From contig KZ538901.1 of the NCBI GenBank assembly GCA_000934665.2, forward strand, positions 1 through 41,425: 41,425 nucleotides of DNA, in the 5' to 3' direction. The DNA is from Catajapyx aquilonaris. Taxonomy: Eukaryota. Under the pieces are notes generated by a model. That model made no database searches, was not told the DNA's origin, and worked only from the letters and a program-made list of their open reading frames with translations. The translations under genes and the position numbers were made by a program. This document shows, piece by piece, positions 2,611 to 33,903 of this stretch. Numbering within the stretch: position 1 is the first letter of the stretch; each line of letters opens with the position of its first letter.

Positions 2611-5600
2611 CTGAAAAACACAAAATAACTTTTGAGCAATACACCACATATTTCACATTTCAATTGATGTCTCTTATAACATTCCCTTTATGCAGGGGAG
2701 ACGGAGTGGCGCCGCGGTAACGCGCGCGCCCACGGAAGTTAAGGTCCCGGGTTCAATCCCCACCCGGGGTTCCCACCTTCTTTCGTGCAGAGTTGGGCCA
2801 TCTCTGGCTTCGTTTCGGGTGGCAATATCCGATAGACTAAGCCACCCGGGGGAGTTCACAAAATGACCAATTAACGACAGCGCACTTGCACTTTGCACAT
2901 CCCCTCCTATACTTACCCTTGGAACAATTAACATATATATACCTTACCCAGATCCCATAGTTTACGCGCGCCCCCAAAAAGTGGAGGGGTGGGGTAGTAA
3001 ACAAAATATGACAAAAAATCCCAGTGAAGATTATATGGACTTTAGAATTGATAATGATGAAGAGTAACAATGGAGCTAGGATGGCACCAGAGTTAATGTT
3101 AATTTGACAGTTAACAACTGAAAAAAATATGATTGCACTTTGGACAGTGAATTTCGGTGGGGTCTGGTAATAATTGCTGTCACTACATTAATTTTTTACA
3201 TAGCAGGACATTAATTTTAACAATGAACCTGAGGGGCCACACAAACCTGAAGACAGCATTAAAATTAATTACAAAAAATCCACCACAGAATTTTAAAATG
3301 TTTATCACGGCTTGCAAATGTCGAATTTTCTGTGCATTTTTGAGTGCAGGGATTTAAAAAGCCATTTCGCATTCATTCAATTGAAAGTTTTTATCATAGC
3401 ACATTGCACTGAGGTCTAAATACACAATATCATCACATTTTAATTTATTAATAAATAACAATATTAAATGTAGTTCAGCAAAGGGGTAGCAAATTCTGAA
3501 AACTTAAACGATATATCGACATTTTTAATTCAGCGACATATTTTTTGTAATTAATTTTAATGCTGTCTTCAGGTTTGTGTGGCCCCTCAGGTTCATTGTT
3601 AAAATTAATGTCCTGCTACGTAACAAATTAATGTAGTGACAGCAATTATTACCAGACCCCATCGAAATTCACTGTCCAAAGTGTAATAAATTTTTTTTCA
3701 GCTGTTAACTGTCAAATTAACATTAACTCTGGTGCCATCCTAGCTCCATTGTTACTCTTCATCATTATCAATTCTAAAGTCCATGTAATCTTCACTGGGA
3801 TTTTTTGTCATATTTTGTTTACTACCCCACCCCTCCACTTTTTGGGGGCGCGCGTAAACTATGGGATCTGGGTAAGGTATTATATGGTTCCCAAAAATAG
3901 TGGTATTCCACTCCCCTAATAAGGGCCCAAGATCCGATAATGGGGTACAGTTAAAAAAATAAAAAAAATAAAAAATAAAATAAAAATTTTAAAAAAACAT
4001 TCCCTTTATGCTTCATTATAGATTTTTAATGCTCACAAAATGCATCAACGCCCACTCATTAATGCACTACATGATGGAACAAAGGGGACGGCTTCTGCAG
4101 AAAGAGTTCCCAAGTAATATTGTGGGGTCTACAAATCCATGTGTCCCAGCTAAACTGGTGCCACTTATTTAGGGTTTTTTTGGTAACAAAGAGATAACTT
4201 TCATCTAGTTTTACACTGTAAATATTGTAATGGTTATCTGTGAGGTCGTGCCCCCCCCCCTCCCCCCAAAATCCGCCACTGACAATACCTGTAAGGAGTT
4301 TTGGTGATTGTCATTAAATACTCACCTAATAATTCTGGGAAGTTCTGGAGCTCTAACAATATACTTATGTCCATAATTGTACTGTCCATCAAAAGCTACA
4401 AACTGCACTGGCTTGCTGTTAGTGGGACGATTCTTAAGAGCCTTATTGTAGAGCTGAAAAATGAATTATCCATAAGTAATGCCTAATTACTGACGCCTAA
4501 GGAGGTTTCAGTTGTTCCCCTGCTCAAAGAGTATGTAACTCAAAAAATTGGCCATCATCAACCAATGCCAGAGAAATTAAAATTACAGTGGAGCATCGAT
4601 TATCCGAACAGAGTCTGCCAAGGGGGTGTTCGGATAACTGATTGTTCGGATAACCGATCATTTACGGAAAAAAATTGTACCGTGTCATAGGAGCAATATG
4701 AAACTAAGAAACAGTGATATTAACCACAAAACTGTATATTTTCTGTCACAGGCACGTCTTAAAAATACTGTACATGTACCTTACTGTCCTTACATGAAGT
4801 AGTCCTGCAGTTTGGGGGGGGGGGCGCGTTTGGTTGGTTTTTTGGTATTTTGCCGACCCGAAAACGTTCAGTTAACCAATGGTTCAGTTGATCGGTGTTC
4901 GGATAATCGATGGTCCACTGTATTTCAGGTTCCTGACAATGTCTTCTGTAGCCATTTGAAACTTGCAAAAATTGCTTTGATCCAAAGTACTCATTATTTT
5001 ACTGTTCTAGTACACACTATAAAAAACTATTTACACCGAACGTCCTAATGGACCAAGCAAAACAAGTGTCTTCCCTTTCCCCAATTAGTTCCAGTGGTCA
5101 TTTGCTTAATATCTGATATACGGTACAATGAAACCTGATTACAGGAGAGTCGTTCTGGTTCATTAAAAAATTATTTAAACAGCTCTCCATCAATTACAAG
5201 TATGTACAATGAAAATCCTCCACAAAGACAGAAAAAAAATTACATACTGAACAAGCTTCCACTGAAACCAGGGGTCATCACTGACAGGTTACACTTAACT
5301 TCAGTTCTAAATATTGTTTTGCCCAAGTCCACCAAATGAATTTATAACTAGAAGATAATAACTATTGTACCTTTTTTCCCAAATGAAATGGCACAATTAA
5401 ATCATCCTCTGCATGCATGATAAGTATTGGGATGGAAATATGTGCCACGTGACGGTCTGTTTCGAATAATAGCCCATTTTCCTTCAATGGTTGGAGAAAA
5501 AGCCACTCAAAAAAGGGCATCTGTCTGTAAAGCTGAAAGACACAAAATCACAATGTATGCAAATTTACATTGCTCCTCATCTTGTTCCCCATTTGTAAGT

Positions 5601-8600
5601 TAGAAAGTTGAATTGTTCAAATTAACCATCAAAAACTTATGAATCTGTTCACAAGACCCACCAAACTGTACCATGCTCACCTTAGTCAGGTAGTGGTGAG
5701 ATACTTCATCCCCCAGATTGTTAAATGGCGATTCCAACACCAATGCTGTTGGAGGATCACCTTCCTGACACAAGTCAGCTATCAGGTGGCCTGACACCCT
5801 GCAAGAAGTGGCATATACAATACAAGTAGCCCAATTAAAAATTAGTTTGATAGGACATACCCTGTTCCCAAAGAATGTCCCCAGACAATAATAGGTGACT
5901 TTTTCACTCTTTTCTCCAGCCAGCGGTAAACGTGTTTGGCATCTGCAACAACCCCATCTTCCGAAGGTACTACAGAACTAGAATCTCCATATCCTGCAAT
6001 ACAAGCCAAAATGTTGTTTTGCCCTTGTCAGATAGATCACATTTACGCACCGCGATAATCAAAACATATCACGTGGTAATCCAAACTCTGTAATAATTGG
6101 TACAGCTCAATGCGGTGAGGACCTGCTCGAGAGCCAGAGTTCCCATGCAAATACAGAATAATGGGATGCCCATATTCTAGAGCCTTTTCAAAGTAACCTT
6201 GAGAGTGGACTGCTGTTTCATCCACTAAAGACCGTGGCAAAATGTGCCTGTAAATGGAACAAGATAGTTAGATTCTCTGAAAACAGGTTATAATGACAAT
6301 GTGAAAGGATCCCTTCCAGGATAATTTGTGTCATGTCCCTCAATAATTGTTAGTGGAGATTGTTCTTACAATATCTTGATCTCTAATCTAATATCAAGAT
6401 GCAAAAGTGAACCACAGGGTTCCTCAAGCTGCAGGATGTGGAGGCAGTCTATGGTTGGAGGAGGGATAGGCATGGCATCTGGAACTCCAAAAAGGGCTGC
6501 TCCAATAGAATTCAAGAATTCTTTTTGTGATTATATCAGTTGAACCGTTAATGATGCTAAGCCGATATGGATGATGACCATTATTAGTACTCTGTTATGT
6601 AACATTTTATTTGTTACATTTGGGCTGAAATTCATGTCGCCAAGGCAGAAGCCTCGATGACAGTGCAACCGATTCCTTTATTACAAACTACATCCTGAAC
6701 CAGCCCCCTGACACATCCCACCTAGATGTATGGATAAGGCCGCATAACTCCTGTGTCTCGGCCAGGCGGCACTGGCGGCGCTACATCATTCCTTAGACCA
6801 TATATACCAGTAGACGCTCCCCTAAGCGCAGAAGTGGGCCCAACAACATCTCGGGGGGGGGGGGGGGGGGCAAAGGGNNNNNGGGGGGGGGGGGGGGGCA
6901 AAAGGGCAAAAGGACTTACGGCAAAAGGGAGACGGGAATACGAATTAGCGTGGTGCCTTATGGCGATTGCAGCTCTCTTTGCAATATTTCTACCGCTGCG
7001 ATTATTATTTTGTTGGAGGCCCGTGACATCTAAAAAAATTTACAAACTTCAACTATTATGAAATTAATGCGTGTTTTCGATATTTATTACCAATTACCTA
7101 AAAAAATTATAAGTTTATGACTGCTAAAGCAGGGCAGGGGCCACATACGTTCAATTGTAAAAGAAACCGAAGCAGTTTGGAGTAGGGGATATGGTGTTCG
7201 ACTGCTAATCAGGAGGTCCTGGGATCAAATCCTGGGGCCAGCAACTCTGACCGTGGTTTTCTGTGGTTTCACACGGTCCTTCCAGGAAAATTCCGGAGTT
7301 GTTTCCGTAATTAATAGGCCACAGCTGCTTCCTTCCGTCCCTATCCTATCCCAAAAAGCGCAGTTCCAAAGAGTTCCAGGCAAAACAAAACTTTCCCCCT
7401 AAAGAGCCGATAGGCTGATAATGGGGTATGAATTTTAATTATAATTATAATTGTAAAAGAAGCAGCCCCACCCCCTATCACCCCCTATCACCCCCTGTTG
7501 GAGGGGCCCAGCGACCCGTACACGCCGGCTCTGTGTATTGATGTATAGGCCTACACTAGATTGGCCCCCTGCATACATATGCCCTTTTTTCTGCACAGCT
7601 CGCAAGAAACAGGGTAATCTCCTGCTGGTAAAATGATTGTAAGAGCGTGAATTCTCCTTGAAAGGGCCACAAGCACACAGGGAAACAACTTTTTAAAAAA
7701 AGATTGGGCCCCGGCAGGGCCCCTTAATTTCATTGGGCCTGGGGCACGTGACCCTTCGCTAATACGGCCCTGCCCATTCTCATCACGACATTAGCTTACA
7801 CGGCATCAGATTCAAAAACAAACCACATATTTGGAATCAGGGAGTCTTCCTTGATCTTCAAAGCCCAACACCCAAAGTTTCTGAACCAGGGTTGTGAACC
7901 GAACCGAACCCTTGCTCCGTGAACCCGAAAACATCGGAGCCACTCCGGAGCAGTAGATCCGGGTCCGGAGCGAGCGTCGGAGCTTGGTTTGGGTTCGAGT
8001 TGGTTCGGGGGGAGAGTGGGGCCAAGGTCGGAGCGGGTCCGGAGTTTGGTTGGGAGCATGCCAGCTTGGTCCGGCGTTTGGTTCGGGCCAACGCCTCCGG
8101 AGTTGAACCAGTTCCGGAGGGAGGTTTGGAGCGGTTCAGAGCTTGGTTAGGTCCAACATACCAACACAATGGGGGGAAAGGCAGAAAAACTGCTGGATCC
8201 AGCATATGCGTCATGTTTTCATTGTGGCAGAATGACATTTCCAAGCACCAGCGATACAGGGTGTACCGCAAATGTCACATATGACCCATATGACATAAAA
8301 ATGTGACATTTGCAGTACACCCTGTATCGCAGGTGCTTGGAAATGTCATTCTGCCGCCATGAAAACATGAAGCATACGCTGGAGTAAATCCTGCGGTTTT
8401 TCTGCCTTGCCCCCCCGTTGCGTTGGTATGTTGGACCTAACCAAGCTCTTAGCTGCTCCGAACCTCCCTCCAGAACCCGTTCAACTCCGGAGGCGTTGGC
8501 CCGAATCAAATGCTGGACCAAGCTGGCAAGTTCCCAACCAAACTCCAGACCTGCTCCGACCTTGGCTCCACTCTCCCCCCGAACCGGCTCGAACCCGAAC

Positions 8601-11600
8601 CAAGCTCCGACGCTCGCTCCGGAGTGGCTCCGATGTTATCGGGTTCATGAAGCAAGGGTTCGGTTCGGTTCACAACCCTGCTCTGAACCCTTCCTTTAAA
8701 TGAATTTCTATAGTTCACCATTTAAAACCCCAAGAAAGTAAATGGAAATAGTGCTTTCCTATCATGCCTATTAACAACCGAAGCAGGCTGGTGGGGTGGA
8801 TAAGGCGTCTGACTGCTAATCGGGAGGTCCTGGGTTTGAGTCCAGGGGCTGGGGATCCTGACTGTGGTTTTTTGTGGTTTCCCACGGTCCTCCCAGGAAA
8901 ATTCCGGTGTCGCTTCCGTAAATAATAGGCCATAGCTGCCCCCTTCCTTTCCTATCCTTGACCTATCCATGGGGAGGTGGGGGGTTTCTGACCTGCACCT
9001 AGGGGGTTGTCTTGCAACCTGACCCCCTGGGGGACTGCACATGACCCCCAACATAAAGACAACACACTTACACCTGTGTCCCCTCCTCACAAATCCCTAT
9101 CCTGATCCCTGCACCAGAGGGAAAAATGTGAAAGAAAATTCGTAAGAAAATAATGGTGGTATTCACCCCCCTAAGGGAGCCAACGGCTCCAGCATGGGGT
9201 AGCAAATATATCATGCCTATTAACTGCTGTAACTCTCCAAAATGGAAAGGAGGAGGCACAAAATATATGGGCGAGTGGCCTTCCGTTCGATTTGCCTGAA
9301 AATTGGATATGTTGTACCCCAGACCATCCTGATCAATGTTAGATGGGGACATTTCGAGGTAGAACCTACAGGGAGCGTGCTATTGACCTCCGAAGGTCAT
9401 ATGGGATATGATCTGGTTTTCCGTTCGATTTGGCTTAAAATTGGATATGTTGCAGCCCAGACCATCCTGATCAATGTTGGATAGGGACATTTCGAGGTAG
9501 GACCTACAGGGAGCATGCTAATGACCTCCGGAGGTAAAGGCCATTTCACAAAAAAAATGTCACGCGGCAAACGGCGCGACTTGCGGCAAATTTTATTGTT
9601 GCCAACAATTGGCAACAATATAAATAAAAATTTGCCGCAAGTCGCGCCGTTTGCCGCGCGACATTTTTTTTGTGAAATGGCCTTAATAGGGGGAGTAGTA
9701 GACTACAATAAGTCTCAGGAACTCAATCGTTATTGCATTAAATTATCTATTAATCTTTATTACCTATTCATCTGGTTCAAATTCTACTCCTTGAAGGTTG
9801 TCATCTGGAGTTTCCTCCAGCTGCACTTCATCATTCATTGGGTCAATGTAAGGAAGCGAGGTTTCTCTCAGTCTTCTAGCCTCTTCGATGAATAGCAATT
9901 AGCATGCTCCCTGTAGGTCCTATCTCGAAATGTCCCTATCCAACATTGATCAGGATGGTCTGGGCTGCAACATATCCAATTCTCAGCCAAATCGAACGGA
10001 AGGCCACTCGCCCATATATTTTGTGCCTCATCCTTTCTGTAGTTGAGGTGTGCCAAAATTTTGTAGAAAAATTACAATTTGCAATTTTTCTACAAAATCA
10101 TGGCACACCTCAATTACAGAATCTTCCATTTTGGAGAGTTACAGCAGTTAATAGGCATGATATATTTGCTACCCCGTGCTGGAGCCATTGGCTCCCTTAG
10201 GGGGGTGAACACCACTATTCTTAGTTGGGCTGGCTAAAAGCAGCATTTTCCTACTCCTGATGCTTTGCTGGCATCTACTGTGCAACTATTAGAAGTTACA
10301 CAGTGGGGCACTCAGTATCAGCCCCCTGCAACTCCTCAGATTCAGTAGGGTATTTAGTGAGTCTATGCCAGCCTTGATTTGGCTCTGCCAGCTGTCCACT
10401 GTTGCTATCGCTAGGTACACTCGAGCCAGTGGCGTAGTATGGGTTGCCAGCGCCCGGGGCAAGGCAAGTATCCCCCCCTTCCCCCAGCACATGTATTGTA
10501 TTTTAAGAAAATACTGATAGAATTTTAAAAAATGTATTGAATGCTAGTGTAAATGAATGAATTATCGGAAGGCAGAAAAATGATATTTTTCCAAAGAAAG
10601 CCGAGTAAAGATGAGGGTAAATCCAATATATTGAATGAGTTTGCTGCATTAACAATGATCTACAGTGTTTCACTATGTAGTCCGCCCAAAGAATCAACTG
10701 TAATTTTCTTCCTACTCTACCTAGATACATAGTGTTTGATATAAAGGTAGGCTTCCTCATAGAGTTATGTGCTTTAAAAAATCCAAACTTCTCTAACTCG
10801 AATCTTCTATAACTCGAAATTTTTTCCCGGTCCCACGGAGATTCGACTTATAGAAGTTTTACTGTATTTTCACTTCTTCAATCCAAGGGGTGGGGGACAG
10901 GGCACCCCCCAGTTGTTCAATATGTGAAGAGCATATTTTCATGCACATTCCCAATTGCAACTTTTCTACGTAGTGAAACCCCCTGGAAGTGAGTTAATAG
11001 GATAACCCATTTGCATTTACTGGAGTAAGAACTGTCTGAGTGGAGGGGCGCTCGATTTTCATTGCAATATAATAATTATATCGTAATGAAAATAGTCGAA
11101 AATTCTGAGGGGCCCAAAACTGAAATTTTGCGCCCGGGGCGACCGCCCCTCTCTCTTCGCCCGCCCCCACGCTATGCCACTGACTTGAGCGACTGGTGGG
11201 CAAGTCTGCTAACTGCTCTGGACTCAGCTGCATTGGATAGAATGGCTTGGGTTGGTTCAGAGTCGTCCGCCTGCCCCAATTTGGGGACAGCAGAGCGGCT
11301 GCAGCGCCAAATCTGAGGTGGCGGAGACTCTCTAAGTCCCTTACCATCATCATAAGGCTAGGCTGGGAGTGGCAGGGGGCGGCTCAGTATCATCCAAAGT
11401 GTTGGCCACTCTCTCCTGAAGGGTAAGCTTCATTACCATCACTAATGATTGTGGAGCCTTCTTGTGATGTGTTATTACACTATGAAGTGTACACCTGATT
11501 ACATGAGTGGCAAAAGCCTCCATACCATCATATTATGAAAACATGTTCAGGTTCTGTGGTTTAAGAAAGTTGAAGGTCACATTCCTCTTGGATCCAATTT

Positions 11601-14600
11601 CTCCCTCCTCTCTCATGCAAAATGACAGACATACTATTCTGAAAAGAATACTTGCCACATTCCAACGGATATATCAGGAGATGTTGTAAGGTACATGTTG
11701 ATGCTCCCAGGTAGCCCTAACAAATGGGGAGAAGTAAAATCTCTTTCTGGCCACCGGCGGACTGAAAAACACAAAATAATTATTAAACTCCTTTATATTC
11801 GGATGTGGCCCTAACAAGAGAATGACCAAGGGTGGTAGCCTCTGATTTAGCTGAAACTTGCATGAGGGGTCAATCATGTGCCATGAACACAGTGGCTAAA
11901 TTCCTAAATTCCTGTTTTCAGCCATTTCCGAGATATGAGCAACAGAAGCATCTGAATTTTGGCTGCGCTTAGAGGTCAGGTGAAAAACGTGCAAGTGCAA
12001 GGAAGAGCTGGTAGTTTTTCAAGTTAGGCTGGCGATCCATGCCTTCGCTTATGTACAAAAATCAGCCAAAATATCATGTACTCCAAACTATACAAGAAAT
12101 ATTTACTTTTGCCAATTACTTAATTCCTTGTTAATATTTGACCATAAAATATCTGTAGATACTCCCGATTATCCTGGTGGGGATTATCCGTGTTTCGGGT
12201 TATCAGTGCATTGCCAAAAAATAAACTTAGAATACAAATCCCGAAAAATGTCAATATGACTCACAAACGAAGAAATATAACATACTTTTCCAGAAGGCAA
12301 ACTAAAAATCTATGGTAAGTTTTATTATTTTGATTAAACCCGATTTAAAGCAGCATGCAAGGGATTTGAACCTGGCAGAGCGGCTCCTGGCAAAATCACA
12401 AGTCTGACGCGCTACCTACTAGACTACCAGCTCTTCCTAGAACTTGCACGTTCCTCACCTGACCCCTATGCACGCAGCTAAAATTCTACTGCTTCTGTCG
12501 TTCATATCTCGGAAACAGCTGAAAATGGGAATTTAAGACTTACACCACTGTGTTTATGGCACATGATTTACTCCTCATGCAAGTTTCAACCAAATTGAAG
12601 GCTACCACCCTTGGTCATTCCCTTGTAAGTTAACTTACCAAATGGGAGAAATACCAGATTTGTCTGAAGGGATGGGAGACTGTGGAACATCAATGGAACT
12701 ACTACAAATATTATCCCAAAAGTGACAAGTCCCACTTTGATTGCCAGGATCCATCCTCTGAAAAATTAAGAATCATTAATGGAAATGCTGTTAGGTAAAC
12801 CAAAGTTAAAATTAGTATCTTGTTATAATAGTATCTAGTAGAGTCACAAAGGTAAGTGCCAAAGATCAGTTTTACAATGATACCCAATAATTTTTAATGG
12901 TGGCTATAGAGAATAATATCTGAAGTAGGGCCTTGGCCTAACAGTGAACTTACATGTCTTCCCATCAATTGCCTGATTTGTATAAATAACAAGTTAAAAT
13001 ACAAAATTTTGTCCTTTCAAAAAATGAAAATGATGTTGCATCCGGTCTTGTGTATTTCCAGATTGTCAGAAACCAGTTTGCAGACTGTTTGTATTTGTGT
13101 TGCTAAGTTTTCACGTGTTGGTACAAAGCCCTTAACTCTAGAAGCAACCTTTGCAAAGTTTTGGCCATATGGAAACCATGCACTTGCATGTAAGGGAAAT
13201 GTACAAACTTCAAATGCGAATATTTCGAAATGACAAAACGCCAAGTTACAGGGCATTGACTTTGGATGCCAGAGTACGGTATTGTCCTTGTTTAGATTAT
13301 CCTTTAAAATACCCCCAGACTACTCCTTCAAAATCAATCTATCAATCTTCTATATAAATAAAGCCGTTTGTAAGTCTGTCTGTCTGTCTCTCTGTCTGTC
13401 TGTCCGCCTGCCAACCGTCATTTGCCTGCCATCTGTGCTCCACCCCCAGGCCGATAGAGGATGGAGGTGTTGGGGGTTGACTACAGATGGCAGGCAAATG
13501 ACGGTTGCCGTTATACAGGCGGGAGAGGTTCAAGGTGTTGGAGTAGCAGGACCACAGATGGCATTGGTGGGCGGACACACAGAAAGACAGACAATTGACG
13601 GGGGTACTGGCAGGTGTTTTCCCTTCATTCATTTCTTCCCGGGCAACGCCGGGTGCCGCAGCTAGTCCCACATAATAATCAAATACCAGGTCCTGCAGCA
13701 CTTGTACAGATGTGGGTGGTATAGTGAATGGATAAGGGGAAAAGGGAAGGGTAGGGGGGGAGGGGAGGGGGGGGGGAACAATGAGTTCCTTCACAGAGCG
13801 TGCAAAAAATGGACACTTCTTCTCAAATTTAGGTATCTTGGGATAATCCAAGAAAAAATTACTTGTTGATTCTGTCAATGAAATCTTGTGACATGACTGC
13901 TGGTCTGTGCTGGCTTGAATGCTTGGGCGGGAGAGTAAGGTAACGATAAGCGTGCCATGATGCACCACCTCAACATTAGAGCATTTGCAACTGTTTTTTT
14001 TGTGTGTGTGTTTTTTTTAACTGTTGAATACAATACACAACATGGTCCCCAACATCAACCATTTCCTCCCACCTAAGCATTCAAGTTAGTGCAGACTGGT
14101 TGTGACATCATGGGAATTCAATTGCAATCATATCCCTCATGGATCAAACAAATCAACTAGAGTAAAAGGATCCATATGGTTCCCATGCTAAATCTCCCTT
14201 GATATCAGACTCAATGGGAGCAGCAAAAACTATACTGAATATGAATCTACAACAGTTACCGTATAGATTATTATGGTGAAAAAAAAAAAATCCCTAGCTT
14301 AGTGGAACATGGAAAATTTTGGCCAAGCTTAATGTCCAGTATTATTTCCTCTTTTTTTTCAAAATTTAAGAAAATGACGAAAATTCTAGAAGGGAAATGG
14401 TTGGCGGAAAATTTCTGACATAGGCAAACAAAATCTTCTCTCACTCTATGGCAAATGGCTCAATTTGGGTGGAAACTATGTTGAAAAAAGTAGGCAGTTG
14501 AAGCTTTCAGATGCACGTACATAATAATAATTACGGGAGTGCTCTGTAGTTTTTCTAATAAAAAATGGAACTGAGTTTCTGAATGAGCCTCATAATTATA

Positions 14601-17600: not shown

Positions 17601-20600
17601 CTCAGAACCAAATCTTTCCTTTTGACTCTTGGATGCTCCCTATATTCTTACCTTGGAACACAGCAATACAAGTGAAGGTCACTTGGTACAAAGTAAGCCC
17701 TATGGTTCTAGAGACGGGCAATTCCACGAAAGGCGGCCATATTGTCCGTACGTAACGCAGGTTTTGCAGACATGTACTAGCGTATTTTATTGTAACAATA
17801 CCCACACATTACATGAAATGGATTAAGCATGCAGTGCATGCATCCTGGCATTGTTATAATAAAATACTCTTGTGCACGTAGGCAACACTTGCGTTACGTA
17901 CGGACGGCTGCGCCATGGAATTGCCCAGACCTAGACTGTTTTGAAAGTGCTCAGCGATGTTCCACTAGAACTGTTTGAAAGTGACCCAGGACAATGCCTG
18001 ATTGTACATGACAGTTCATACATGAGCGTTTCTCAGGGTCTCAAACAGATCAAGTGGGAGGCATCTTAGAATATCCACTGCATGATTCAGACCTTTCATC
18101 GAATTACTATCACTTGGTTTGCCAAATACAGAAAATATTTGGCAGCCGAAGGCCTATGGAGTGACCAAGACATGAAGAAATAAGTATGGCACTAAAATAA
18201 CGGTCAACATCAGCTTACCAAATCTGGCCCCATGGTTCTAAAAATGCTTCACTCTACATTGGGTTTGTGCCAAGGGGAGGGTGAAAAAATATGTTCATGA
18301 TGTGGCTATGTTAAATTTTGTGGAAAATATTTAAACAAAATTTTATGGCCAAACACATTTGGAATGTAGTAATAAAATCCGAGATCTCCTTCAGGTAAAG
18401 GTGCCTCAAGAGAAGTTAGTGTATTGTACCTTGCATGCAATTTAGCATTTTAAAATATAAATGAATGTGTCCTGGGAGGATAAAACAGACAGCAAAACAA
18501 ATGATAAATGACCCAAGTGTACTTACATTCCTGCCCACCACAAACCAACAGGTAGCAAGACCAGAAAGATGGCACCTCCCAACAGCATGTTTTAAAAAGG
18601 GCACAACAAATAAACAGGCCAAACAAAAGTAGATCCACTTCCAACACGACTAGAATCACAAACAATCAGCACCTGCAGAACAGGAGTGGATGAGAATTGC
18701 ATGCAAATCATAATTTTCAGAAGGCAGTGAAATATCAGGAGTGGTTTCAAGCAAGGCTGTTAAGACTGTATTTAAATGATCTTTGACACATGTTGTCAAT
18801 GTTGCAAAACACGCAAGACCTCATTTAAAAAAGTATAAAATAATGGTCCCTTAGGCTTAGGGAATAACCAATACAGGGAAGCATATCAGTGATAAGTGGA
18901 AGAGTCCTAGGTTCAATCCCAAGCCGGGCTTTCCCCCCTTTCATCTAATAGGAGTTGGGTTGTCTCTGGCTTCTTCTTGGGTGGGATATCTTAGACTAAC
19001 CAACTAGTGGATATAATATTATCCCTCTGCGTTGCGTGGTTGCGTAACCACAGGGTGTCAATTACGCCCATTTTCGAGCATTTTTGCTACGTTCGCAGTC
19101 ACTTTGACGGCCATATCTCCTAAAAGGTCAGGTCAAATATAATATTTGATATGTGCATTCCAAGGGGCATTTTACGCTCTATGAGATGGTCGTGTTCATT
19201 TTTAAGAAATCCAAAAATGCAAAGTCAAATATGGCGCCAGAAACTTTGATTTTGACATTGCTTATTGATGGCCCCCTACCACTTCTTTTGAATGGCACTT
19301 AAAATGACAAGGGCAATGTTTACTTCATATTTCCGAAAAATCTGGAGAACCCTTTTTCGATATTTGCCGACAATAATAACTTTTTTGGTTTCAAACGCGT
19401 CCCGTCAGTGTGGTCACCTCATTTGGTGGACCATAACTCGGAGAATCTCATGTCAAATCTTATATTTGATATGCGTATGGGAAAGGTATTTTTATGCTCC
19501 AGGAGATGGTCTTACCCAAAATTGAAAAATCCAAAAATTTTAAGTCAAAAATGGCGCCCAAAACTTTGATTTTGATATTGCTTATTAATGACCCCGTACG
19601 ATATCTTTTGGATGGCACTTAAAATGATCAGGGTCATGTTTAATTGACATTTCCGCAAAATTTGGAGAACCCTTTTTTGATATTTGCCAAATATAAAAAT
19701 ATTTTAGTTGCAAGACGTGTAGCGTAAGAGTAGTCACATCAATTAGCAATAAAATTACTCCAAATATGTTGCGTTAAATATTCATGTTGCACATCAATAG
19801 AATGCCTGATTCTAACACTACATAGAATATAATGCAAATACCGATTTCGCTATTGCCTAATAAAAATATAATCCGCATAAAGTTAAACAGGGGCTTAAAA
19901 ATGGGCGCTTCTGTTAACTTCATGCGAATTATCTTTTTAGTATGTCACTAAAATTGCTATTTATTATTACCCATGTAGAGCGCTAGAATCTGGAATTCTC
20001 ACGATCTGTAGCATGAATATTTAACCCAACACATTTGGAGTAATTTCATTACTAATATTGAGGTGACTACTCTTACGCTACACGTCTTGCAACTAAAATA
20101 TTTGTATATTTGGCAAATATCAAAAAAGGGTTCTCCAGATTTTGCGGAAATGTCAATTAAACATTACCCTGATCATTTTAAGTGCCATCTAAAAGATATC
20201 ATAAGGGGCCATCAATAAGCAATATCAAAATCAAAGTTTTGGGCGCCATCTTTGACTTTCAATTTTTAGATTTTTCAATTTTGGGTAAGATCATCTCCTG
20301 GAGCATAAAAATACCTTTCTCATACGCATATCAAATATAAGATTTGACATGAGCTTCTCCGAGTTATGGTCCACCAAATGAGGTGACCACACTGACGGGA
20401 CGCGTTTGAAACCAAAAAAGTTATTATTGTCGGCAAATATCGAAAAAGGGTTCTCCAGATTTTTCGGAAATATGAAGTAAACATTGCCCTTGTCATTTTA
20501 AGTGCCATTCAAAAGAAGTGGTAGGGGGCCATCAATAAGCAATGTCAAAATCAAAGTTTCTGGCGCCATATTTGACTTTGCATTTTTGGATTTCTTAAAA

Positions 20601-23253
20601 ATGAACACGACCATCTCATAGAGCGTAAAATGCCCCTTCGAATGCACATATCATATATTATATTTGACCTGACCTTCTAGGAGATATGGCCGTCAAAGTG
20701 ACCGCGAACGTAGCAAAAATGCTCGAAAATGGGCACATTTGACACCCTGTGGATATGCAACCACGCAACGCAGAGGGATAATAATTTGGATTCCTGCAGG
20801 TCGATGGGTAGTACATGTCATTAAATTTTGGTCAAGGTCCTCAAAGATTTGTCGGAAGATGCTCTGCTTGACGTGGAATGCCTCATATATATAGGACTTG
20901 ATTCCTTCTGTGATAAATGACATTTACCAGGGTGGTACCTTTAGTGGGGGCTTAACGTCGGCCTATTTCTGCCGCTAGGCTCAACACCGACGCCAGGGGG
21001 TGGTGCTCCTCCTGGAAATTTGGCCGCTCTGGGGATCTGTAACGTACACTCGCGCAATGTCACAAGCACACGGGACCGACTGCGACGGCTTTACTTCCCC
21101 TCCGAAGGAAGGTGCACTCTCACTTTTCTACCACCCAGAGAAAACTCACCGACCTCGGCCGGGTTCGAACCCACAACTTTGGGACCAGAGGCGAGCGCGC
21201 TAACCACTATAGTCCACCGGCGCCGGCTCCAGGGTGGTACCAAAATGATTTACAATTTGTGCATGCTGATAATTTTTGCTTCCATGCAAATGTGTAAAAC
21301 ATGTCACAGGACAATGCGGAAAACATCAAATGAAAGCCTGGCATCTCCTCTTCAAAACCATACATTTAGTTTTCAACATAATCACCACCAACAGTAACAC
21401 ACTTGGGCCAATGATTTACTTGTTCTTCCCTCCCGTCAGCGTAGAACTCAGGGCTGTGGGAAAGTGAACAGGATGCGCCCAGGAAAGGATGTCATTCTTC
21501 ACCATGATTATGTTCGACCACATACAAGCAATCACACTGCGGATGCCATCCACAGACTTAATATCCCCGTACTTCCTTATCCGGCGTATGCAGCCCAGGT
21601 CTTGTGCCTTGTGTCTCATGTCTTTTCCCAAAAATGAATACAGACCTGGAGGGCAATCATGTACAGCTCCAATGAATAAGTTGAGTCTGCTGTTCACTCT
21701 TGGTGCTGATCCCATAGCCCCGGGTTCTACTCTGACGGGAGGAAAGAACTAGCGCATAGTTGGTGCAAGTGTACTGCTACAGGTGGTGATTATGCAGAAA
21801 AGTAAATATGTGATTTTGAAGAGGCCATTTCAGGCTTTTATCTTCCCATATTGTTGTGTGGCATGTATTACACATTCTATGTCCATGGAGGCAAAAATTA
21901 TCAGCACACCCTCGTATCGCTCAGTCACATGCTTAACGAGTGGTGTAATTTCCAGGGAAGTGACAGATTGAGCAGATGACATGTATTTAGATCTGATGAA
22001 TAGAGCTGTGACACCTGGATTCTTTTTGCATAGTACCTGCATTGTCCAATAAATTTTGATTGGTTTTTGTTCATTTGCTGCACAAAAAAATTAATAACAG
22101 CTCCTTACCCCTCCTTGAAGCATGCCTGAAATGGTGCTGCCATCTTTACATAGCCACTGTCAACAAACTACCTGAAGCTATACGTACCATATAAGTCTAC
22201 TACTGTTCTTCTTGAACAGTATCTGAACACATTGGCTACGACGTGGGGTATTTTTCTACCCCACGCGGTTTTCATTTTTTAAAAATTTGCCTTAATAGCA
22301 CTAAAGCCATTCTTCCGCACTAAATTCGACCTGTATTCTCATCTGTATGTGTAAAAAAAATCGATCTCCTGTGACCATTAGTTGAGTCATAAGGGACTTG
22401 AAACTCCGTTATCGCACCTTCGTAGCCTTCCAGCTCGATGCTGTAAGTAATGACTTATAACGTAAACATTCCCAGCTGCAGGGTCTGCAAGATTTTAGTT
22501 CCGAGCAATATTTATTGCTGAATAACAACACTCACACTTTGTAAAATACAATTTTGCTGTGATGCGCTGTGATGTGCTCTCTAAAAAATTATGTACATTG
22601 GCTACGACGTGGGGTATATCTGGACCCCACAGGGACGCTTAGCAGAAAAGTACCGCTAACTCCGCAAAAAAAAAATCTACTGATGTCAAAAAATTTCTTC
22701 GGATCGAAGAAAGTATGTCTGAGGAATATAGGCCTGCCATTTTTCATTTCATACACAATTTATTAATCGCGATGGTATTAACTACATTGTGGGGTAGAAA
22801 AATACCCCACATTGGTGGTGAAGTGTTAAATCACTCATTGTATCTATCATTTCATTTGGTCTGCCCCCACAATTTTTTTGCAATGTAACTGATTCCATCA
22901 TCCTGTACACTTCAAACTGTTGCCTATGGTATGTGAATATCTGCTCTTTATGGAAAGACAGGCCCAACTAATGTACCTTATGCCTGTCAGAGTGTCACTT
23001 CCAGAGAATCTGACTTCATTTATCCGCAGCATAGTTCACAGCCTTGCAAGTGCTATGCCTTATCAAAACCACTCCCTCACATCTTGCCCAGAACAAAAAC
23101 AATAATAAAACTGATAGGAGAGCCTGAGCAATGCCAGCTGCTTCCTTTTAACATGCTTCATGCTGGTTGCATGTACACCATAACATACCTAGAACCACGG
23201 CGGGGCAGAAGATGCTTGAATGGCATAACCATACTCCGTCGAATGAATGGCAT
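2565..23253 (-). CDS. ABHD12: ABHD12-like alpha/beta hydrolase (lysophosphatidylserine lipase family), spliced gene, about 357 aa; coding exons 23189-23253 (probable), 12639-12757, 11656-11761, 6051-6247, 5861-5993, 5681-5798, 5371-5532, 4326-4453, 2565-2610
   Basis: Exons join in consistent phase (1074 nt including the stop) with AG acceptors and GT donors (one GC). The protein has an N-terminal TM helix, [20 protein letters not shown], the nucleophile elbow [21 protein letters not shown] (Asp) and YGHKYI (His), all characteristic of ABHD12. Confidence 0.92.
2694..3995 (+). mobile_element. tRNA-derived SINE, head family A, interrupted by a foldback element
   Basis: A box tggcgccgcgg, B box ggttcaatccc, A-rich tail, 16-bp TSD aacattccctttatgc (2678-2693 / 3996-4011); head and body nearly identical to the copy at 38350. 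Confidence 0.9.
2942..3877. mobile_element. foldback DNA transposon with about 340-bp inverted arms, TA-flanked, nested in the SINE
   Basis: 2942-3279 is the reverse complement of about 3540-3877; termini ta|CCTTACCCAG...CTGGGTAAGG|ta. Confidence 0.88.
4326..4453 (-). CDS. ABHD12: ABHD12 exon ([10 protein letters not shown]...[17 protein letters not shown]), catalytic His
   Basis: ttttcag acceptor, gtgagt donor; contains the GHKYI..PELP motif. Confidence 0.92.
4586..4920. mobile_element. Tc1/pogo (Tigger-like) MITE
   Basis: ta|cagtggagcatcgattatccgaaca ... tgttcggataatcgatggtccactg|ta; internal gttcggataa repeats. Confidence 0.85.
5371..5532 (-). CDS. ABHD12: ABHD12 exon ([12 protein letters not shown]...[19 protein letters not shown]), catalytic Asp
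   Basis: tttcag acceptor, gtacaa donor; contains the HAEDD..VPF.LGKK motif. Confidence 0.93.
5681..5798 (-). CDS. ABHD12: ABHD12 exon ([39 protein letters not shown])
   Basis: cag acceptor, gtgagc donor; contains the LVLESPF motif; overlaps ORF 5600..5797. Confidence 0.93.
5861..5993 (-). CDS. ABHD12: ABHD12 exon ([19 protein letters not shown]...[10 protein letters not shown]), catalytic Ser
   Basis: cag acceptor, gtatgt donor; contains the GxSxG nucleophile elbow. Confidence 0.94.
6051..6247 (-). CDS. ABHD12: ABHD12 exon (WHILPRSL...[22 protein letters not shown]...FDYRG)
   Basis: cag acceptor, gtgcgt donor; contains the HGN oxyanion-hole motif; matches ORF 6043..6240. Confidence 0.94.
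7166..7448 (+). mobile_element. tRNA-derived SINE, head family B (GCT-anticodon-like arm), internally shortened
   Basis: Head accgaagcag...gactgctaatc...gggatcaaatcc; 13-bp TSD aattgtaaaagaa (7153-7165 / 7449-7461). Confidence 0.85.
7887..8680. mobile_element. hAT-like foldback element, about 390-bp inverted arms and about 20-bp loop
   Basis: TIR cagggttgtgaaccgaaccgaacc; 8-bp TSD ttctgaac / ctctgaac; arms are complementary almost to the centre (about 8290). Confidence 0.9.
8776..9208 (+). mobile_element. tRNA-derived SINE, head family B
   Basis: Same head as 7166 and 32075; 16-bp TSD tatcatgcctattaac (8760-8775 / 9209-9224). Confidence 0.88.
9143..10223. repeat. local inverted duplication (9143-about 9385 vs 9898-10223) with an approximately 137-bp tandem unit in the left arm
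   Basis: The right arm is the reverse complement of the SINE tail, TSD and downstream flank. The unit ccgttcgatttg..aaaattggatatgttg..cccagaccatcctgatcaatg occurs twice on + and once on -. Confidence 0.85.
9538..9683. mobile_element. PIF/Harbinger-like palindromic MITE
   Basis: taa|aggccatttcacaaaaaaaatgtc ... gacattttttttgtgaaatggcct|taa; TAA TSD; almost fully palindromic. Confidence 0.82.
10319..11382. mobile_element. old foldback MITE with 8-bp TSD (hAT-like), hosting a nested hAT MITE
   Basis: Exact TSD ctcagtat (10311-10318 / 11383-11390); diverged inverted arms cagccccctgc..gatttggctctg vs cagcgccaaatc..gcagggggcgg. Confidence 0.7.
10427..11182. mobile_element. hAT-like MITE (CAGTGGCGTAG termini) containing a Tigger-like 3' fragment at about 10785-10864
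   Basis: TIR cagtggcgtag / ctatgccactg; TSD actcgagc / acttgagc; subterminal gcgcccggggc motifs. Confidence 0.82.
11656..11761 (-). CDS. ABHD12: ABHD12 exon ([36 protein letters not shown]) ending at a GC donor
   Basis: ttttgtgtttttcag acceptor; phase-2 end TG|gcaagt joins G-CAC of the next exon to give the conserved G.WH. Confidence 0.88.
11813..12626. mobile_element. diverged foldback element with about 200-bp arms, filling most of an ABHD12 intron
   Basis: acaagagaatgaccaagggtggtagcc... pairs with ...ggctaccacccttggtcattcccttgt; complementarity extends to about 12015 / 12425. Confidence 0.8.
12639..12757 (-). CDS. ABHD12: ABHD12 transmembrane exon ([39 protein letters not shown])
   Basis: ttttcag acceptor, gtaagt donor; hydrophobic helix followed by P.LQ..LVFL.F as in ABHD12. 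Confidence 0.88.
13346..13665 (+). mobile_element. non-autonomous Helitron
   Basis: 5' a|TC..ctatataaataaa, a (tgtc)n microsatellite, a 3' hairpin cccgggcaacgccggg, then CTAG|t, with no TSD. The 5' end is uncertain by a few bases. Confidence 0.85.
14330..14592 (+). pseudogene. mariner transposon 3' relic
   Basis: Encodes [12 protein letters not shown], similar to the mariner C-terminal KC...G.YVEK, and ends tttctgaatgagcctca|ta like a mariner TIR. Confidence 0.55.
14602..17413. mobile_element. piggyBac-like MITE (about 0.88 kb net) interrupted by a 1.9-kb hAT foldback
   Basis: TIR cctcctgagacc / ggtctcaggagg flanked by atat on both sides; internal repeat of the left end at about 14970. Confidence 0.65.
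15065..16991. mobile_element. hAT-like giant foldback element with about 815-bp inverted arms
   Basis: TIR tagggcggctcgaaaaacac; exact 8-bp TSD ctgtacac (15057-15064 / 16992-16999); 15065-about 15881 is the reverse complement of about 16172-16991. Confidence 0.93.
17716..17926. mobile_element. Sola2-like hairpin MITE
   Basis: TIR gggcaattcca / tggaattgccc; 4-bp TSD agac; body largely self-complementary. Confidence 0.7.
18880..19010 (+). mobile_element. degenerate family-A SINE fragment
   Basis: ggttcaatcccaagccggg...ctctggcttc...gggtggga...tagactaac resembles the body of the 2694 and 38350 copies. Confidence 0.6.
19023..20777. mobile_element. giant foldback element (CCC...GGG termini, piggyBac-like), palindromic essentially to its centre at about 19900
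   Basis: ttat|ccctctgcgttgcgtggttg ... caaccacgcaacgcagaggg|ataa; each arm holds a direct repeat with a period of about 320 bp; TSD ambiguous. Confidence 0.9.
20940..21228 (-). mobile_element. tRNA-derived SINE, family D
   Basis: Minus-strand A and B boxes (tagtggttagcg; gggttcgaaccc); 13-bp TSD ccagggtggtacc (20927-20939 / 21229-21241). Confidence 0.88.
21253..21914. mobile_element. mariner-derived element with about 210-bp inverted arms around a decayed transposase core
   Basis: Right end aaaaattatcagcacaccctcg|ta is a mariner-type TIR. The spacer translates to [12 protein letters not shown]...VLPYPAY-(frameshift)-SPGLVPC..LFPKM, similar to mariner HDNARPH / YSPDLAPCDF.LFPK. Confidence 0.8.
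22228..22825. mobile_element. piggyBac-like MITE
   Basis: Left end cacattggctacgacgtggggtatttttctaccccac; right end gtggggtagaaaaataccccac..aagtg|ttaa; left motif repeated at about 22596. Confidence 0.65.
23189..23253 (-). CDS. ABHD12: probable first coding exon of ABHD12 ([22 protein letters not shown])
   Basis: ATG at 23253; strong AG|gtatgt donor in phase 2, matching the TM exon; upstream acceptor ctctctgttctag at 23284; encodes a basic cytosolic N-terminus. No homology check was possible. Confidence 0.55.

Positions 23254-24033: not shown

Positions 24034-24106
<73 letters not shown>
24034..24106. repeat. (ATT)n microsatellite
   Basis: Pure trinucleotide run. Confidence 0.95.
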
Positions 24107-24517
24107 GGAGTTCGAGTGTGGATTTCCGTATGCTGGTTCTTCTCGCTGGCCTGTGGGTGTTCTGGTCGTTTGGAGGAGAATATTTTAGTCACTTGGAGGA
24201 ATTTAACAGTTGCTGATTCCTCTTCCAGGGGTGTGGGAGACACTTGTTTTCTCAAAGTACCGCGTTGCATAGTGTAATATTTTAATATGGAAAGTTTGTC
24301 GTCTGACATGGGCAGGGGTGGGGGGCGGGACGGGTTGTTTACAGGTTTATTTTTTACCAGTTTTAATTTAGTTCATATTTTGGGTTAGCTTGCGGCTCCC
24401 GTCATCGCTGACTACCCCTTATAGGGAAATGTCGTGATGGTGATGGTGATGATTATTATTATTATCATCATCATCATCATTAATGCACTGCAAAACTGAC
24501 GCCACACTTAATTAGAG

Positions 24518-24754
24518 CAGTGGTTTCCAACCTTTTACTCATGCTTTTACTAACTGCGACACCCTAAACATGTTTCCATAAATGTGCGACTCCTCCCCCT
24601 CCCTCCCCTCCCTCGGCCTCTCCTATACTGCCCCCTTTTCAGAAAACATACACTCTGTACGGCCGCAAAATAGGTTCAATTGACACCGTTTCTTCCCCCT
24701 TTTTTAAAGTTGAACCAAGGCTCGCGACCCCCGCGACCCTGTTGGAAACCACTC
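24518..24754. mobile_element. hAT (Charlie/Buster-like) MITE
   Basis: TIR cagtggtttccaac / gttggaaaccactc; TSD aattagag / gattagag. Confidence 0.8.
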
Positions 24755-24855
24755 GATTAGAGTGACATCAACAAGTTACCTGACAATAAGAGGCTTTGTG
24801 ACGACACAATAGGCTACCATTCTATGGTTGAATACGATAAAAGGTTGTATTATTT

Positions 24856-25194
24856 GGAGAGGTGTGGTGGTCGAGATGGTAACGTCTCGGCTTACTGAGT
24901 GAAAGGTTCCATGTTTGATCCCCGCCTGGGAGCTCCCTTTCACCTGCGTCAGGAGGGTCTCTCAGACTCTGACCCGCGCCTTGAAGGTGTCTGGCACCCT
25001 AACCTCCTGGGGAACAGCACATGGCCCCTTTTCAGACAATGCACTTGCACCCATGTTCCCTCCCCAAAAAATCCATATCTTGAGCCATTTTCCTTTATTC
25101 CCTGCACCGCAGTTAGAAGAAAATAGAAAATAGGAAAATATGGTGGCAGTCCACCCCCCAAAATTGACACTGTCTCATGGGGTACACCCTTTTA
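24856..25194 (+). mobile_element. tRNA-derived SINE, head family C
   Basis: A box tggtcgagatgg, degenerate B box; TSD aaaa(g/t)gttgtattattt (24839-24855 / 25195-25211). Confidence 0.85.
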
Positions 25195-25510
25195 AAAATG
25201 TTGTATTATTTTATACTTTGGGCTGTTTACATGAATAACAATGAATGAGGAAAAACGATGTCTTCATCATCAATCGCATAAATGACAATAAAGATAACTG
25301 TATGACTTGTGTATTAGCTACTTCCGTTTTTGTTATTGCTTAGTCTATATAGAATATTATTTATTGCTCAAAATAACTATCATAGTAAACAATAAATAAT
25401 TGCCCATATCTGACGAGGAACAACCAACACTAGTTAGGGCTTAGGGCCGGTCATATAATTGACAGCAGATGATGGGCTAATTGTTTCCACTTAGTCGGTC
25501 AACGCCCTTA

Positions 25511-26137
25511 CCTCTGGAACCGTGACTTGCCTGAAAGTTACGGCAACCGTGACGTGGGGTCTTTTAGGACCCCATCCATATTGTAATTTTTATATAACAC
25601 TTTTCAATGTACAATATTGACTATATTAAATCATTCTTTGAACAATGCCTAAAATGATCGCTAATTCAAAATAAACAGGGGAGGTGTGGTGGCCGAGATG
25701 GTAACGTCTCGGCTTGCTGAGTGAAAGGCCCCAGGTTCGATACCCGCCTGGGGAACTTTCCTTTCACCTGTCTCTGACCTGCACCAAGGAGGTGTCTGGC
25801 AACCTAGCTAACCTCCTGGGGAACAGCACATGACCCATAACTACGACATTGCACCTTGCACCCATGTTCCCTCCCCAAAAATCCATATCCTTTCCCATTG
25901 TCCCTGCTTCCTTGCACCGGTGAATGAAGTGAAAATATATATAATACAGAAAACTGATGGTGGTATGCCACCCCCCTATAGCTCCCGTAAGGGACATCAC
26001 GGGGTTAAAAAATCAAAATAAATAAGCACATCCTGTTATATACTTTTTAAATGGCAAAAGTTAATTGTAATTATAATTTTAATGCATTTTAATTCCTTTG
26101 GTGTCCTAAAAGACCCCACGTCGCGTCGGTTCCAGGG
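25511..26137. mobile_element. piggyBac-like MITE, copy 1, with a nested SINE
   Basis: Ends ..ctggaaccgtgac..gtggggtcttttaggacccc / gtcctaaaagaccccacgtc..ggttccaggg|ttaa. Confidence 0.75.
25676..26012 (+). mobile_element. tRNA-derived SINE, head family C
   Basis: A box tggccgagatgg, B box ggttcgatacc; 10-bp TSD tcaaaataaa (25666-25675 / 26013-26022). Confidence 0.85.
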
Positions 26138-27157
26138 TTAACTTGTGACATTCCAGGAGCGTCTATAGTCCATATTCAACACGTTCGATTGCACTAGCAG
26201 GCCTACTAGACGGTAAGATGCACTGGTTATGGTGCCACAATGACGTGTAGGCACGACGTCCTCCTATGGTTGAAAGTTTCAGACTAAAAGTCATCGCTAT
26301 CGCGTCTCGAAGGCGCCTGAACAAAATGCCTGAACCTCTTGCAGTAAATGCACCTAATATAATAAATTTCAGATTTAGTCTTGAAACTACTTTATGTAGG
26401 ACAAGCACGTTTTGTTGGAGAATTCTATCAGAATCAGTCCAATCAATCCCTAGAAGCTAGAACATTAGGCTATGTGATAAGTTCAAATGAATAGCTAATA
26501 TTAGTTTATGTATAGCTGTTCACCTGCAATAGTATTCCACAACTAATATGTATATAATAACACCTATAAAGATCCAAATAGCTCACTGCCTATCGATATA
26601 ATCATTACAAGAAGCACGTGGATTTCAAGACATGTTGAATAATAAAAATGTCTAGACCTGTGAACTTGGGTCTTGGGTACAGGTTGATCCGTTCCGGGTG
26701 AAGTGGTTCGGGATAGGGTGTGGCATAGAAAGTAGACGGGGTATAACTGTAGGCCTATGGTGGTGGCGTGATATCATTGGGTTTGGTCTAGAATGCTCAG
26801 CGCAAATCGTATGCACGCTATTACTATTACACTCAAGCCCAGCTCGGACTCGTAAATCAATAACGACTGATTTCCCACCAGTTCAAGCACATTGTGCATC
26901 ATGTACGTATCTGAAGGAAGTGGTAGTTTTGCATGCCATTGATGGTCTCCATTTACATGTTATTTGTAAGCTTACTATACAATCTATAAGCCTACATCAT
27001 TTCGCTCCAAATATTTGCCATGAGTCCATAAAGACGATGGTACGCGGATAAGTTGAAGATGGGAACGAAGTCGCGTCAGGTTGCTCTGCAAAGGCTGCTC
27101 TCTGGTTGCCTTTGGTTATTTTACATCCAGTAGGCCTATATACCGGTGCTATTACAA

Positions 27158-27677
27158 CCCTGGAACCGTGACGTGCCTGAAAGTTACGTTAACCGTGACC
27201 TGCCTGAAAGTTACGTTAACCGTGACGTGGGGTCTTTTAGGACCTATCCATATTTAAATTTTTATTAATTTTTATATAATACTTTTCAATGTATTGACTA
27301 TATATTCAGTCATTCTTTGAACAATGCCTGAAAAATGATCGCTAATTCAAAATAAACATTAATGTTCCCTCCCCAAAAATCCATATCCTTACCCATTCCT
27401 TTATTCCCTGCACCGGAGTTAGAAGAAAATGGAAAATAGAAAATATGGGAATATGGTGGCAGTCCACCCCCCAAAACTGACACTGTCTCATGGGGTACAC
27501 CCTTTAAAAAAAGGTTGTATTATTTTACACCTTGGGCTGTTTACATGAATAACAATGAAATGGTTATATACAGGTAGGCCCTACTTTAAAAAAATGGCAA
27601 CAGTTAATTGTAATTATCATTTTAATGCATTTTATTTCCTTTGGGGTCCTAAAAGACCCCACGTCACGGTTCTAGGG
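27158..27677. mobile_element. piggyBac-like MITE, copy 2, carrying a copied SINE 3' end and flank
   Basis: Same ends and body as 25511-26137, ending ggg|ttaa; 27362-27559 matches 25053-25245. Confidence 0.78.
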
Positions 27678-28499
27678 TTAATGACGTTTGCCTCTGTGAC
27701 GCAAGAATATCCCACGAACGGGGCGACGCGACGGCACAGTAGGCTCACGCTCAGTAGCCCCCACCTAAACATGATTACCGTCAGGGCATAGAAGAAACTC
27801 TTCATCTAAAACTGGTTTAGAATATATTATTTTCATAATCTCAGACTGTGTCATTATTCGGCATTATCATAAAATAATAATATTTGGCTCATTGGCTGAA
27901 TGTACTGTAGTCCTAACTCCATCTTACAAACTTGACAATGCCTATAGCGAACTATAGGATTGCGTGAGTATTACTACTGCAAAAAAAAAGTGTGCGTGTG
28001 CGCATGAGTGTTGTCTTACACGAATGAATCACAGTCGTGTAGAGTAGGATTACGTAGGCTCACATAATATTGTGCCATAATTTTGCGCGATTTATGGCAC
28101 GGGATTTGAGAAATACGAAGTTGTTATATTGTATTGATGTGTACTTGTAGTCACGTTCTTGCACACGAGAACACTCTACTTGAAGTTATACTACTTCGGC
28201 CAAACCTGGAGGCCTAATAAAATATTGTGCAACTGACGTGTATAACTTATACTAAAACTAAACTACAGTTTCGTTCAGGACACATTAAATAAATAATTAT
28301 TTTTTTGGTCAGTATATCCTCAATAGCCTTACTTACGCGATGCTGATAATCGAGGGATGTTGAACCATCTAGCAATAATTGCAGGTGTTACTGTGATATA
28401 ACTCAGTGAACGTGTTTTCGGCAGATGAAATAAGCTCCCTATGATTAGATAGCAAGGATTTAAGATAAATAGGTTACGTATCTGTTACTGCTGTCGACG

Positions 28500-28921
28500 A
28501 TGCGCGTGTGAAGGGTGCAAGATACACAGGGTGATGCGAATTCATCTGCCAAAATGATACGGGTAGTAGGGGGTGCGCATGAAAGAAGCATGGCATGGGT
28601 CCTAAAGGCCGGCGACGACGTTGACGTCAACAATGTCTTTCCTGACAAGTATGGATAGATTGGATACCCACGTACTGTAGTACATGCCTCATCGCTGGTT
28701 GACGGAGCTAGGCCGGTTGAGCAACGTAGGGTCTGGGAGTGCGAGCCGCAACCAGCAATGCGGCAGGCATGTACTGGGGTAGCCACACTTGTCAGGATAT
28801 CGTTGGCGTCAAAGTCATCGCTGGCCTTTCGGACCCCATGCGAAGCCTCTTCCACATGCACCCCCTCTCGCCCGAATCTTATTGGCAGATGAATTCATAT
28901 GCAATGCACCCATATAAGCAT
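28500..28921. repeat. diverged foldback with about 200-bp arms, just downstream of the exu-like stop codon
   Basis: gaattcatctgcca..ggggtgc..aaaggcc.gcga.gac.ttgacg..tcctgacaagt..gtacatgcct is mirrored on the opposite strand around about 28725. Confidence 0.75.
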
Positions 28922-32001: not shown

Positions 32002-32076
<75 letters not shown>

Positions 32077-32503: not shown

Positions 32504-32587
<84 letters not shown>

Positions 32588-32643
32588 CCTGGGGTAGTGA
32601 TTTCACCCCCAAATGGACCTTTATTTATTTATTTATTTATTTA

Positions 32644-32708
<65 letters not shown>

Positions 32709-33831: not shown

Positions 33832-33903
<72 letters not shown>

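Follow-up and report, generated by a model that had tools for sequence, protein, structure and literature searches.

Can unrelated DNA transposons, lying side by side within a few tens of kilobases, all have been turned into giant palindromes? The question is raised by contig KZ538901.1 of Catajapyx aquilonaris (assembly GCA_000934665.2), of which a stretch of 41,425 nucleotides (nt), called here the window, was analysed. The original prediction placed at least ten foldbacks with long arms, belonging to unrelated transposon superfamilies, within positions 2942..28921 (25,980 nt), and attributed them to a general process by which one end of an element is copied onto the other. The cluster turned out to be real and dense, and it consists of new families of an already described kind of element. 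The observation was largely right. The inference about origin is plausible and fits the small loops at the centres of several of the palindromes, and it is not new.

Inverted repeats were sought by comparing the window with its own opposite strand, both without gaps and with gaps (blastn), and both comparisons recover the long ones. With low-complexity sequence masked, 21 inverted-repeat alignments of at least 50 nt within 3 kb are present in the window. Thirty dinucleotide-preserving shuffles produced one such alignment in a single shuffle and none in the other 29. Some trinucleotide arrays also pair as inverted repeats, and these inflate the raw counts unless they are masked. Summed by their coordinates, the foldbacks take up about 8.5 kb, or 33%, of the span of 25,980 nt. 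No two elements share sequence (blastn, E<=1e-8, within the window), as had been claimed.

The ten predicted elements (A to J in Table 1) are not all of one type. Six of them, A, B, D, E, F and I, are long-armed foldbacks, whose arms measure 189-862 nt and are 82-96% identical. Three, G, H and J, are short palindromes (60-115 nt), and one, C, is a conventional element. Arms of about 0.8-0.9 kb, given as the upper range, are found in D and E, but in no other element. J is weak, with only 67% identity over 386 columns when aligned by blastn. K was absent from the predicted list.

Table 1. Positions of the elements and other features in the window. Percentages are identities between arms unless stated otherwise. 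MITE, miniature inverted-repeat transposable element; SINE, short interspersed element; TIR, terminal inverted repeat.
Feature	Positions	Strand	Description
A	2942-3877		Foldback, TA-flanked; arms 359 nt, 95.5%; spacer 217 nt
B	7887-8680		Whole-element palindrome; arms ~380 nt (374 aligned), 91.4%; spacer 20 nt, loop ~10 nt
C	10319-11382		Conventional non-autonomous hAT-like element; TIR ~11 nt; perfect 8-bp duplication (CTCAGTAT)
D	15065-16991		Foldback; arms 816 nt, 96.4%; unique centre 290 nt
E	19023-20777		Whole-element palindrome; arms 862 nt, 94.1%; spacer 20 nt, loop ~8 nt
F	21264-21906		Old foldback; arms 189 nt, 82.0%; centre 248 nt
G	9538-9683		Palindromic MITE, 146 nt; arms 60 nt, 98.3%; spacer 25 nt, 3-nt loop; TAA on both sides
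H	17716-17926		Palindromic MITE, 211 nt; arms 79 nt, 84.8%; spacer 44 nt; AGAC duplication, 4/4
I	11811-12629		Foldback; arms 202 nt, 85.1%; centre 407 nt
J	28538-28896		Decayed inverted repeat, weak; 115 nt at 82.6%; spacer 122 nt
K	9149-10222		Older foldback; arms ~235 nt, 93-97% by segment; hosts two nested small palindromes
87-nt palindromic MITE	10035-10121		3-nt loop; nested in right arm of K
S3, 5' part hosting A	2694..2941	+	94% to 38350-38584; 3' part resumes after 3879
SINE-like family, copies	7165-7347, 8769-9117, 32067-32415, 25770-25891		
Other SINE-like family, copies	20947-21177, 37354-37578		
Alpha/beta-hydrolase-like fragment	6046-6267	-	Pfam
Exuperantia-type RNase-H-like exon	30527-31216	-	Open over 230 codons; Pfam PF22123, E 2.5e-13

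Several elements are inserted into older repeats, and for three of them, A, G and the 87-nt palindrome, a paralogous empty site is present in the window, so that insertion as a unit can be read directly. A sits inside a copy of S3, a tRNA-derived SINE of ~330 nt that has an A-rich tail and a motif resembling a B box, GGTTCAATCCC (copies 2694-2930 and 38350-38690). When A and one TA are removed, the interrupted copy becomes collinear with the SINE copy at 38350-38690, with 117 of 146 aligned positions identical. A TA target duplication, of the Tc1/mariner type, is present on both sides of A and is matched by an empty paralogous copy. G occupies one of two 138-nt tandem units of K, and the sister unit is uninterrupted. 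The 87-nt palindrome lies in one arm of K and is missing from the other, left arm, which is its empty site. The 138-nt tandem duplication is itself confined to the left arm of K, and is a sign of decay after the palindrome had formed. Target duplications lie at the outer edges of the whole structures in D, C, B, H, A and G.

S3 is associated with a second element. E begins 13-20 nt beyond an S3-like fragment (18904-19004, 74% similar). Since A lies inside one S3 copy and E adjoins another S3-like sequence, the DNA transposons here tend to occupy or adjoin SINE bodies. Outside the predicted span, two S3 copies form an inverted pair in 32700-33789, at 32762-32978 (-) and 33510-33722 (+). Their arms are 81% alike, and inverted (TTA)n/(ATT)n microsatellites (32641-32708 and 33832-33903) enclose the pair. 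This structure is either a SINE-armed foldback or two independent insertions. B is flanked on both sides by one of two further SINE-like families.

The insertions bear on whether the palindromes are genuine. Chimeric inverted joins made during assembly, local inverted duplications or chance pairs of independent insertions could all leave inverted repeats. The assembly is gapped, with four short runs of N (172 N in total) in the window, and the pair at 32700-33789, being two copies of a dispersed SINE, could have arisen by separate insertions. However, no run of N falls within any element. The arms differ from each other by 1-18% and contain indels, and an artefactual join would have made them identical. 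Furthermore, the duplications flank whole structures, and three of these have empty sites. An artefactual or accidental origin of the cluster is thus very improbable.

The target sites give an indication of the kinds of transposon involved. The TIRs of hAT elements are ~10-25 bp long and start with YARNG, and their 8-bp target duplications have the pattern nTnnnnAn. The three elements predicted to be hAT-like indeed have 8-bp duplications, matching at 8/8 positions in C, 8/8 in D (CTGTACAC) and 7/8 in B, and those of B and D fit that pattern. The tips read CAGGG in B, TAGGG in D and CAGCC in C. The 8-bp duplications and YAGGG-type tips identify B, C and D as hAT-like. The TIR of C fits the usual short length, and the only other inverted match in this element is a subterminal one of 46 nt at 82.6%. 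C is a textbook hAT MITE, and contradicts the claim that all superfamilies here appear as palindromes. The arms of B (~380 nt) and D (816 nt) are far longer than such TIRs.

Other elements have other target sites. The TA at A, the TAA at G and the 4-bp duplication at H (AGAC) had all been correctly recognized. A is TA-targeting. By their TAA sites, G and possibly I are PIF/Harbinger-like; I is bordered by TAA at both ends if its tips are placed at CAAG...CTTG, an assignment that is less certain than that of G. Two labels are not supported. The element predicted as a mariner at 21253-21914 (F) has its inverted repeat at 21264-21461 / 21710-21906, starting 11 nt inside the proposed left boundary, and is flanked by CA/CA and not by TA. 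E has the CCC...GGG tips that had hinted at piggyBac, but its flanks read ...TTAT and ATAA..., and no TTAA is present on either side. E shows no clear duplication, and no 7- or 9-nt direct repeat was found at any boundary tried; the sequence on both sides is rich in AT and in part palindromic. At least four classes of target duplication (8 bp, TA, TAA and 4 bp) are present in all. Judged by target sites only, it is reasonable to regard the elements as members of unrelated superfamilies.

The centres of the elements fall into two types. Folding of the central 90 nt as DNA leaves loops of just 3-10 nt in five whole-element palindromes, namely B, E, G, the one at 10035-10121 and another at 39957-40041. 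The last of these lies outside the predicted span. It is a near-perfect palindrome of 85 nt (92%, 3-nt loop) and is probably another miniature palindromic element. Loops of this size are the expected footprint of a nascent strand that snaps back and copies itself. In six elements (A, D, F, I, J and K) the arms enclose 122-407 nt of unique sequence. No source for these centres was found in the window, apart from a stretch of 46 nt in D that resembles, at 78%, the arm of D itself.

The hairpin shape across at least four target classes and the small loops agree with the predicted end-copying process, but simple snap-back fails for the six elements with centres of 122-407 nt. The explanation that we favour, and consider probable, is that at least twelve unrelated non-autonomous class II transposons, most of them similar to long-TIR or foldback MITEs, were inserted into non-coding arthropod-type DNA, having been founded by faulty repair and then amplified in trans. 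The founding event would be a faulty repair, either of the gap left by excision or of a break within a parent element, in which a strand is copied inward from one tip. If that strand snapped back where a short inverted repeat lies inside the element and was then extended out to the tip again, a palindrome with a tiny loop would result (B, E, G and both of the small ones). If the strand instead switched templates between the two ends, the product would have long arms around a unique centre, as in A, D, F, I and K. Products with two identical ends might then be mobilized in trans by transposases encoded elsewhere. Long spacers or decayed centres would make some of these products poor hairpin formers, and such elements would persist. 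Between the arms of E, identity declines toward the centre from 100% and reaches 82%, 69% and 25% in the last three tenths, as expected of a palindrome that survived through central asymmetry.

PMC3814204 already describes both the hairpin pattern and an origin by template switching. According to that paper, long-TIR and whole-foldback MITEs are known in Tc1/mariner, PIF, hAT, P and piggyBac; simple deletion cannot account for long-TIR MITEs; and template switching during synthesis-dependent strand annealing was proposed from the Goblin/Ozma elements of Aedes aegypti, which are the nearest case for the origin considered here. In nuclease mutants of yeast, inverted repeats of only 5-9 bp are reported to be capable of driving palindromic duplication by snap-back (PMC7999016). 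The snap-back inverted duplications at yeast breaks (PMC7999016, PMC10622511) have the same very short loops as B, E, G and the two small palindromes. The yeast cases described there, however, are chromosome-scale rearrangements in nuclease mutants, whereas the window holds small units that are mobile and belong to a wild genome. Mos1 with two right ends is reported to transpose in vitro 26-fold better than with its natural pair (PMC4505599).

The closest known relatives in structure are the long-TIR and foldback MITEs described in PMC3814204, namely PALTA/PALTTAA and Cele of Caenorhabditis elegans, Hairpin of Arabidopsis, and Xfb, Joey, MathE3 and Milord. Like the elements in the window, they are non-coding, have duplications typical of their superfamilies and have arms much longer than the usual TIRs, and some are wholly palindromic. 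In both cases, several superfamilies are affected in one genome. By general definition, MITEs are small and non-coding and occur as many nearly identical copies. All elements in the window are non-coding, and the size of G, H and the 87-nt element is also that of MITEs, while each family has only one copy in the window. In contrast, D (1.9 kb) and E (1.8 kb), with their arms of 0.8-0.9 kb, exceed the usual MITE size.

Several observations weigh against founding by faulty repair followed by amplification. No autonomous parent of any element was seen, and therefore the origin step rests on analogy. No transposase domain was found by a Pfam scan of the 127 stop-to-stop open reading frames (ORFs) of at least 70 amino acids (aa) in the window. 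In the window each family has a single copy, and scans of metagenomes and viral contigs with the element tips yielded no other; amplification is consequently assumed rather than shown. In the metagenome scan, the 20-nt tip of D matched two loci over 20-22 nt only, one of them inside a 679-aa ORF of a prokaryote-like contig, and these matches are so short, and the ORF so foreign, that they are attributed to chance. Scans of viral contigs with the tips of A, E and D gave no match. The six unique centres of 122-407 nt have no recognizable source in the window. The mobility of E, which has no clear target duplication, is deduced from its shape only. Finally, C shows that conventional short-TIR elements coexist with the foldbacks and that palindromy is not universal here.

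The internal organization of E bears on the favoured explanation and also on a different one. Each of its arms is composed of two subrepeats of ~320 nt, which are 78-80% alike within an arm; across the arms, the outer subrepeats are 99.0% alike and the inner ones 94.9%. Because the likeness across the arms exceeds that within an arm, the tandem duplication either predates arm-to-arm copying, an order that counts in favour of founding by repair, or the arms have been homogenized since. Tandem subrepeats within kilobase TIRs are described as a hallmark of Foldback/Galileo-type elements (PMC4168063, PMC3573991), and E has them, as do Drosophila Foldback, Galileo (P superfamily) and Tetris. E is similar to these elements also in that the sequence of one arm comes to be in both. 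It differs from them in that neither the 7-bp duplication of Galileo nor the 9-bp duplication of Foldback was found at its boundaries and in that no transposase segment is present; B and D have hAT-type 8-bp duplications instead. In Galileo, internal duplications and insertions in one TIR that are later found in both have been reported (PMC4168063), and a repair model in which sequence is copied from one TIR to the other has been proposed (PMC3573991); both reports likewise count in favour of end copying.

The autonomous parents might thus already have had long, internally repetitive TIRs, as in Foldback, Galileo and some Mutator-like elements, and the elements in the window would then be derivatives by internal deletion, with no copying of ends. 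The unique centres of 217-407 nt in A, D, F and I could be remnants of the internal region. However, B and D have 8-bp duplications and YAGGG tips of the hAT type, and the TIRs of hAT elements are typically shorter than 30 bp, as stated in PMC3814204. C, the one hAT-like element of conventional form in the window, has a TIR of ~11 nt. Furthermore, the loops of the whole-element palindromes leave no space for a deleted interior. Long-TIR parents are therefore an unlikely source of the cluster, although a more credible one than assembly artefacts.

The density of the cluster could also point to a peculiarity of the host. In this case the lineage would have a repair bias toward snap-back or template switching, or an unusual tolerance of palindromes, and every superfamily of DNA transposon, as well as SINEs, would be turned into kilobase hairpins. 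Foldbacks of at least four target-duplication classes make up a third of the 26-kb span, and the inverted SINE pair at 32700-33789 would be of the same nature. On the other hand, the data come from one window and not from a genome, and arm identities of 82-97% fit slow accumulation equally well. Dense MITEs have an arthropod precedent, given that they are reported to constitute 16% of the Aedes aegypti assembly (PMC3259105). Among the matches listed in a literature search, judged by titles and the openings of abstracts, no arthropod genome paper reports the density found here. A host-level bias is improbable, and somewhat more so than long-TIR parents. If it existed, foldbacks would dominate the class II content and reach about one third of some regions.

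The original prediction assumed that long palindromes are normally unstable, and this premise was overstated. According to PMC7999016, spacers longer than ~50 nt already relieve the problems in eukaryotes, and in eukaryotic cells a spacer of 52 bp suffices to abolish the stalling of replication at pairs of inverted Alu repeats. Instability is therefore not to be expected of most elements in the window.

Faulty repair followed by trans amplification is thus the reading that we retain. As it stands, the window provides a local catalogue of foldback-type non-autonomous transposons, which is useful for the repeat annotation of the genome. If, across the genome, palindromic derivatives were to outnumber conventional elements in several superfamilies, if their arms came from one end of short-TIR parents and if related species did not have them, the hypothesis of their origin would become a measurable, lineage-specific repair phenotype. 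In that event the genome would also contain many natural substrates for the production of hairpin RNA (endogenous small interfering RNA).

The DNA around the elements has a GC content of 38-49% across the window and is AT-leaning eukaryotic, arthropod-type DNA. Only two recognizable coding pieces were found among the 127 ORFs, an alpha/beta-hydrolase-like fragment and an exuperantia-type exon (Table 1). No relative of the latter was found in a word-based protein search restricted to longer proteins. A Pfam match to Renin_r, with 17 bits against a cut-off of 27.8, was below the threshold. An Rfam scan of the window gave no family at the gathering score.

In addition to S3, the window contains two dispersed SINE-like families, the copies of which are 76-92% alike. 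Five long (ATT/ATA/TAA)n arrays of 22-31 units are present at 24034-24106, 31982-32075, 32500-32587, 32641-32708 and 33832-33903. In the region 24856-27681, direct repeats are spaced 1.4-2.1 kb apart, for example 25053-25245 / 27362-27559 (89%) and 26049-26141 / 27592-27681 (90%), suggesting either that a segment was duplicated locally or that a composite repeat is present twice.

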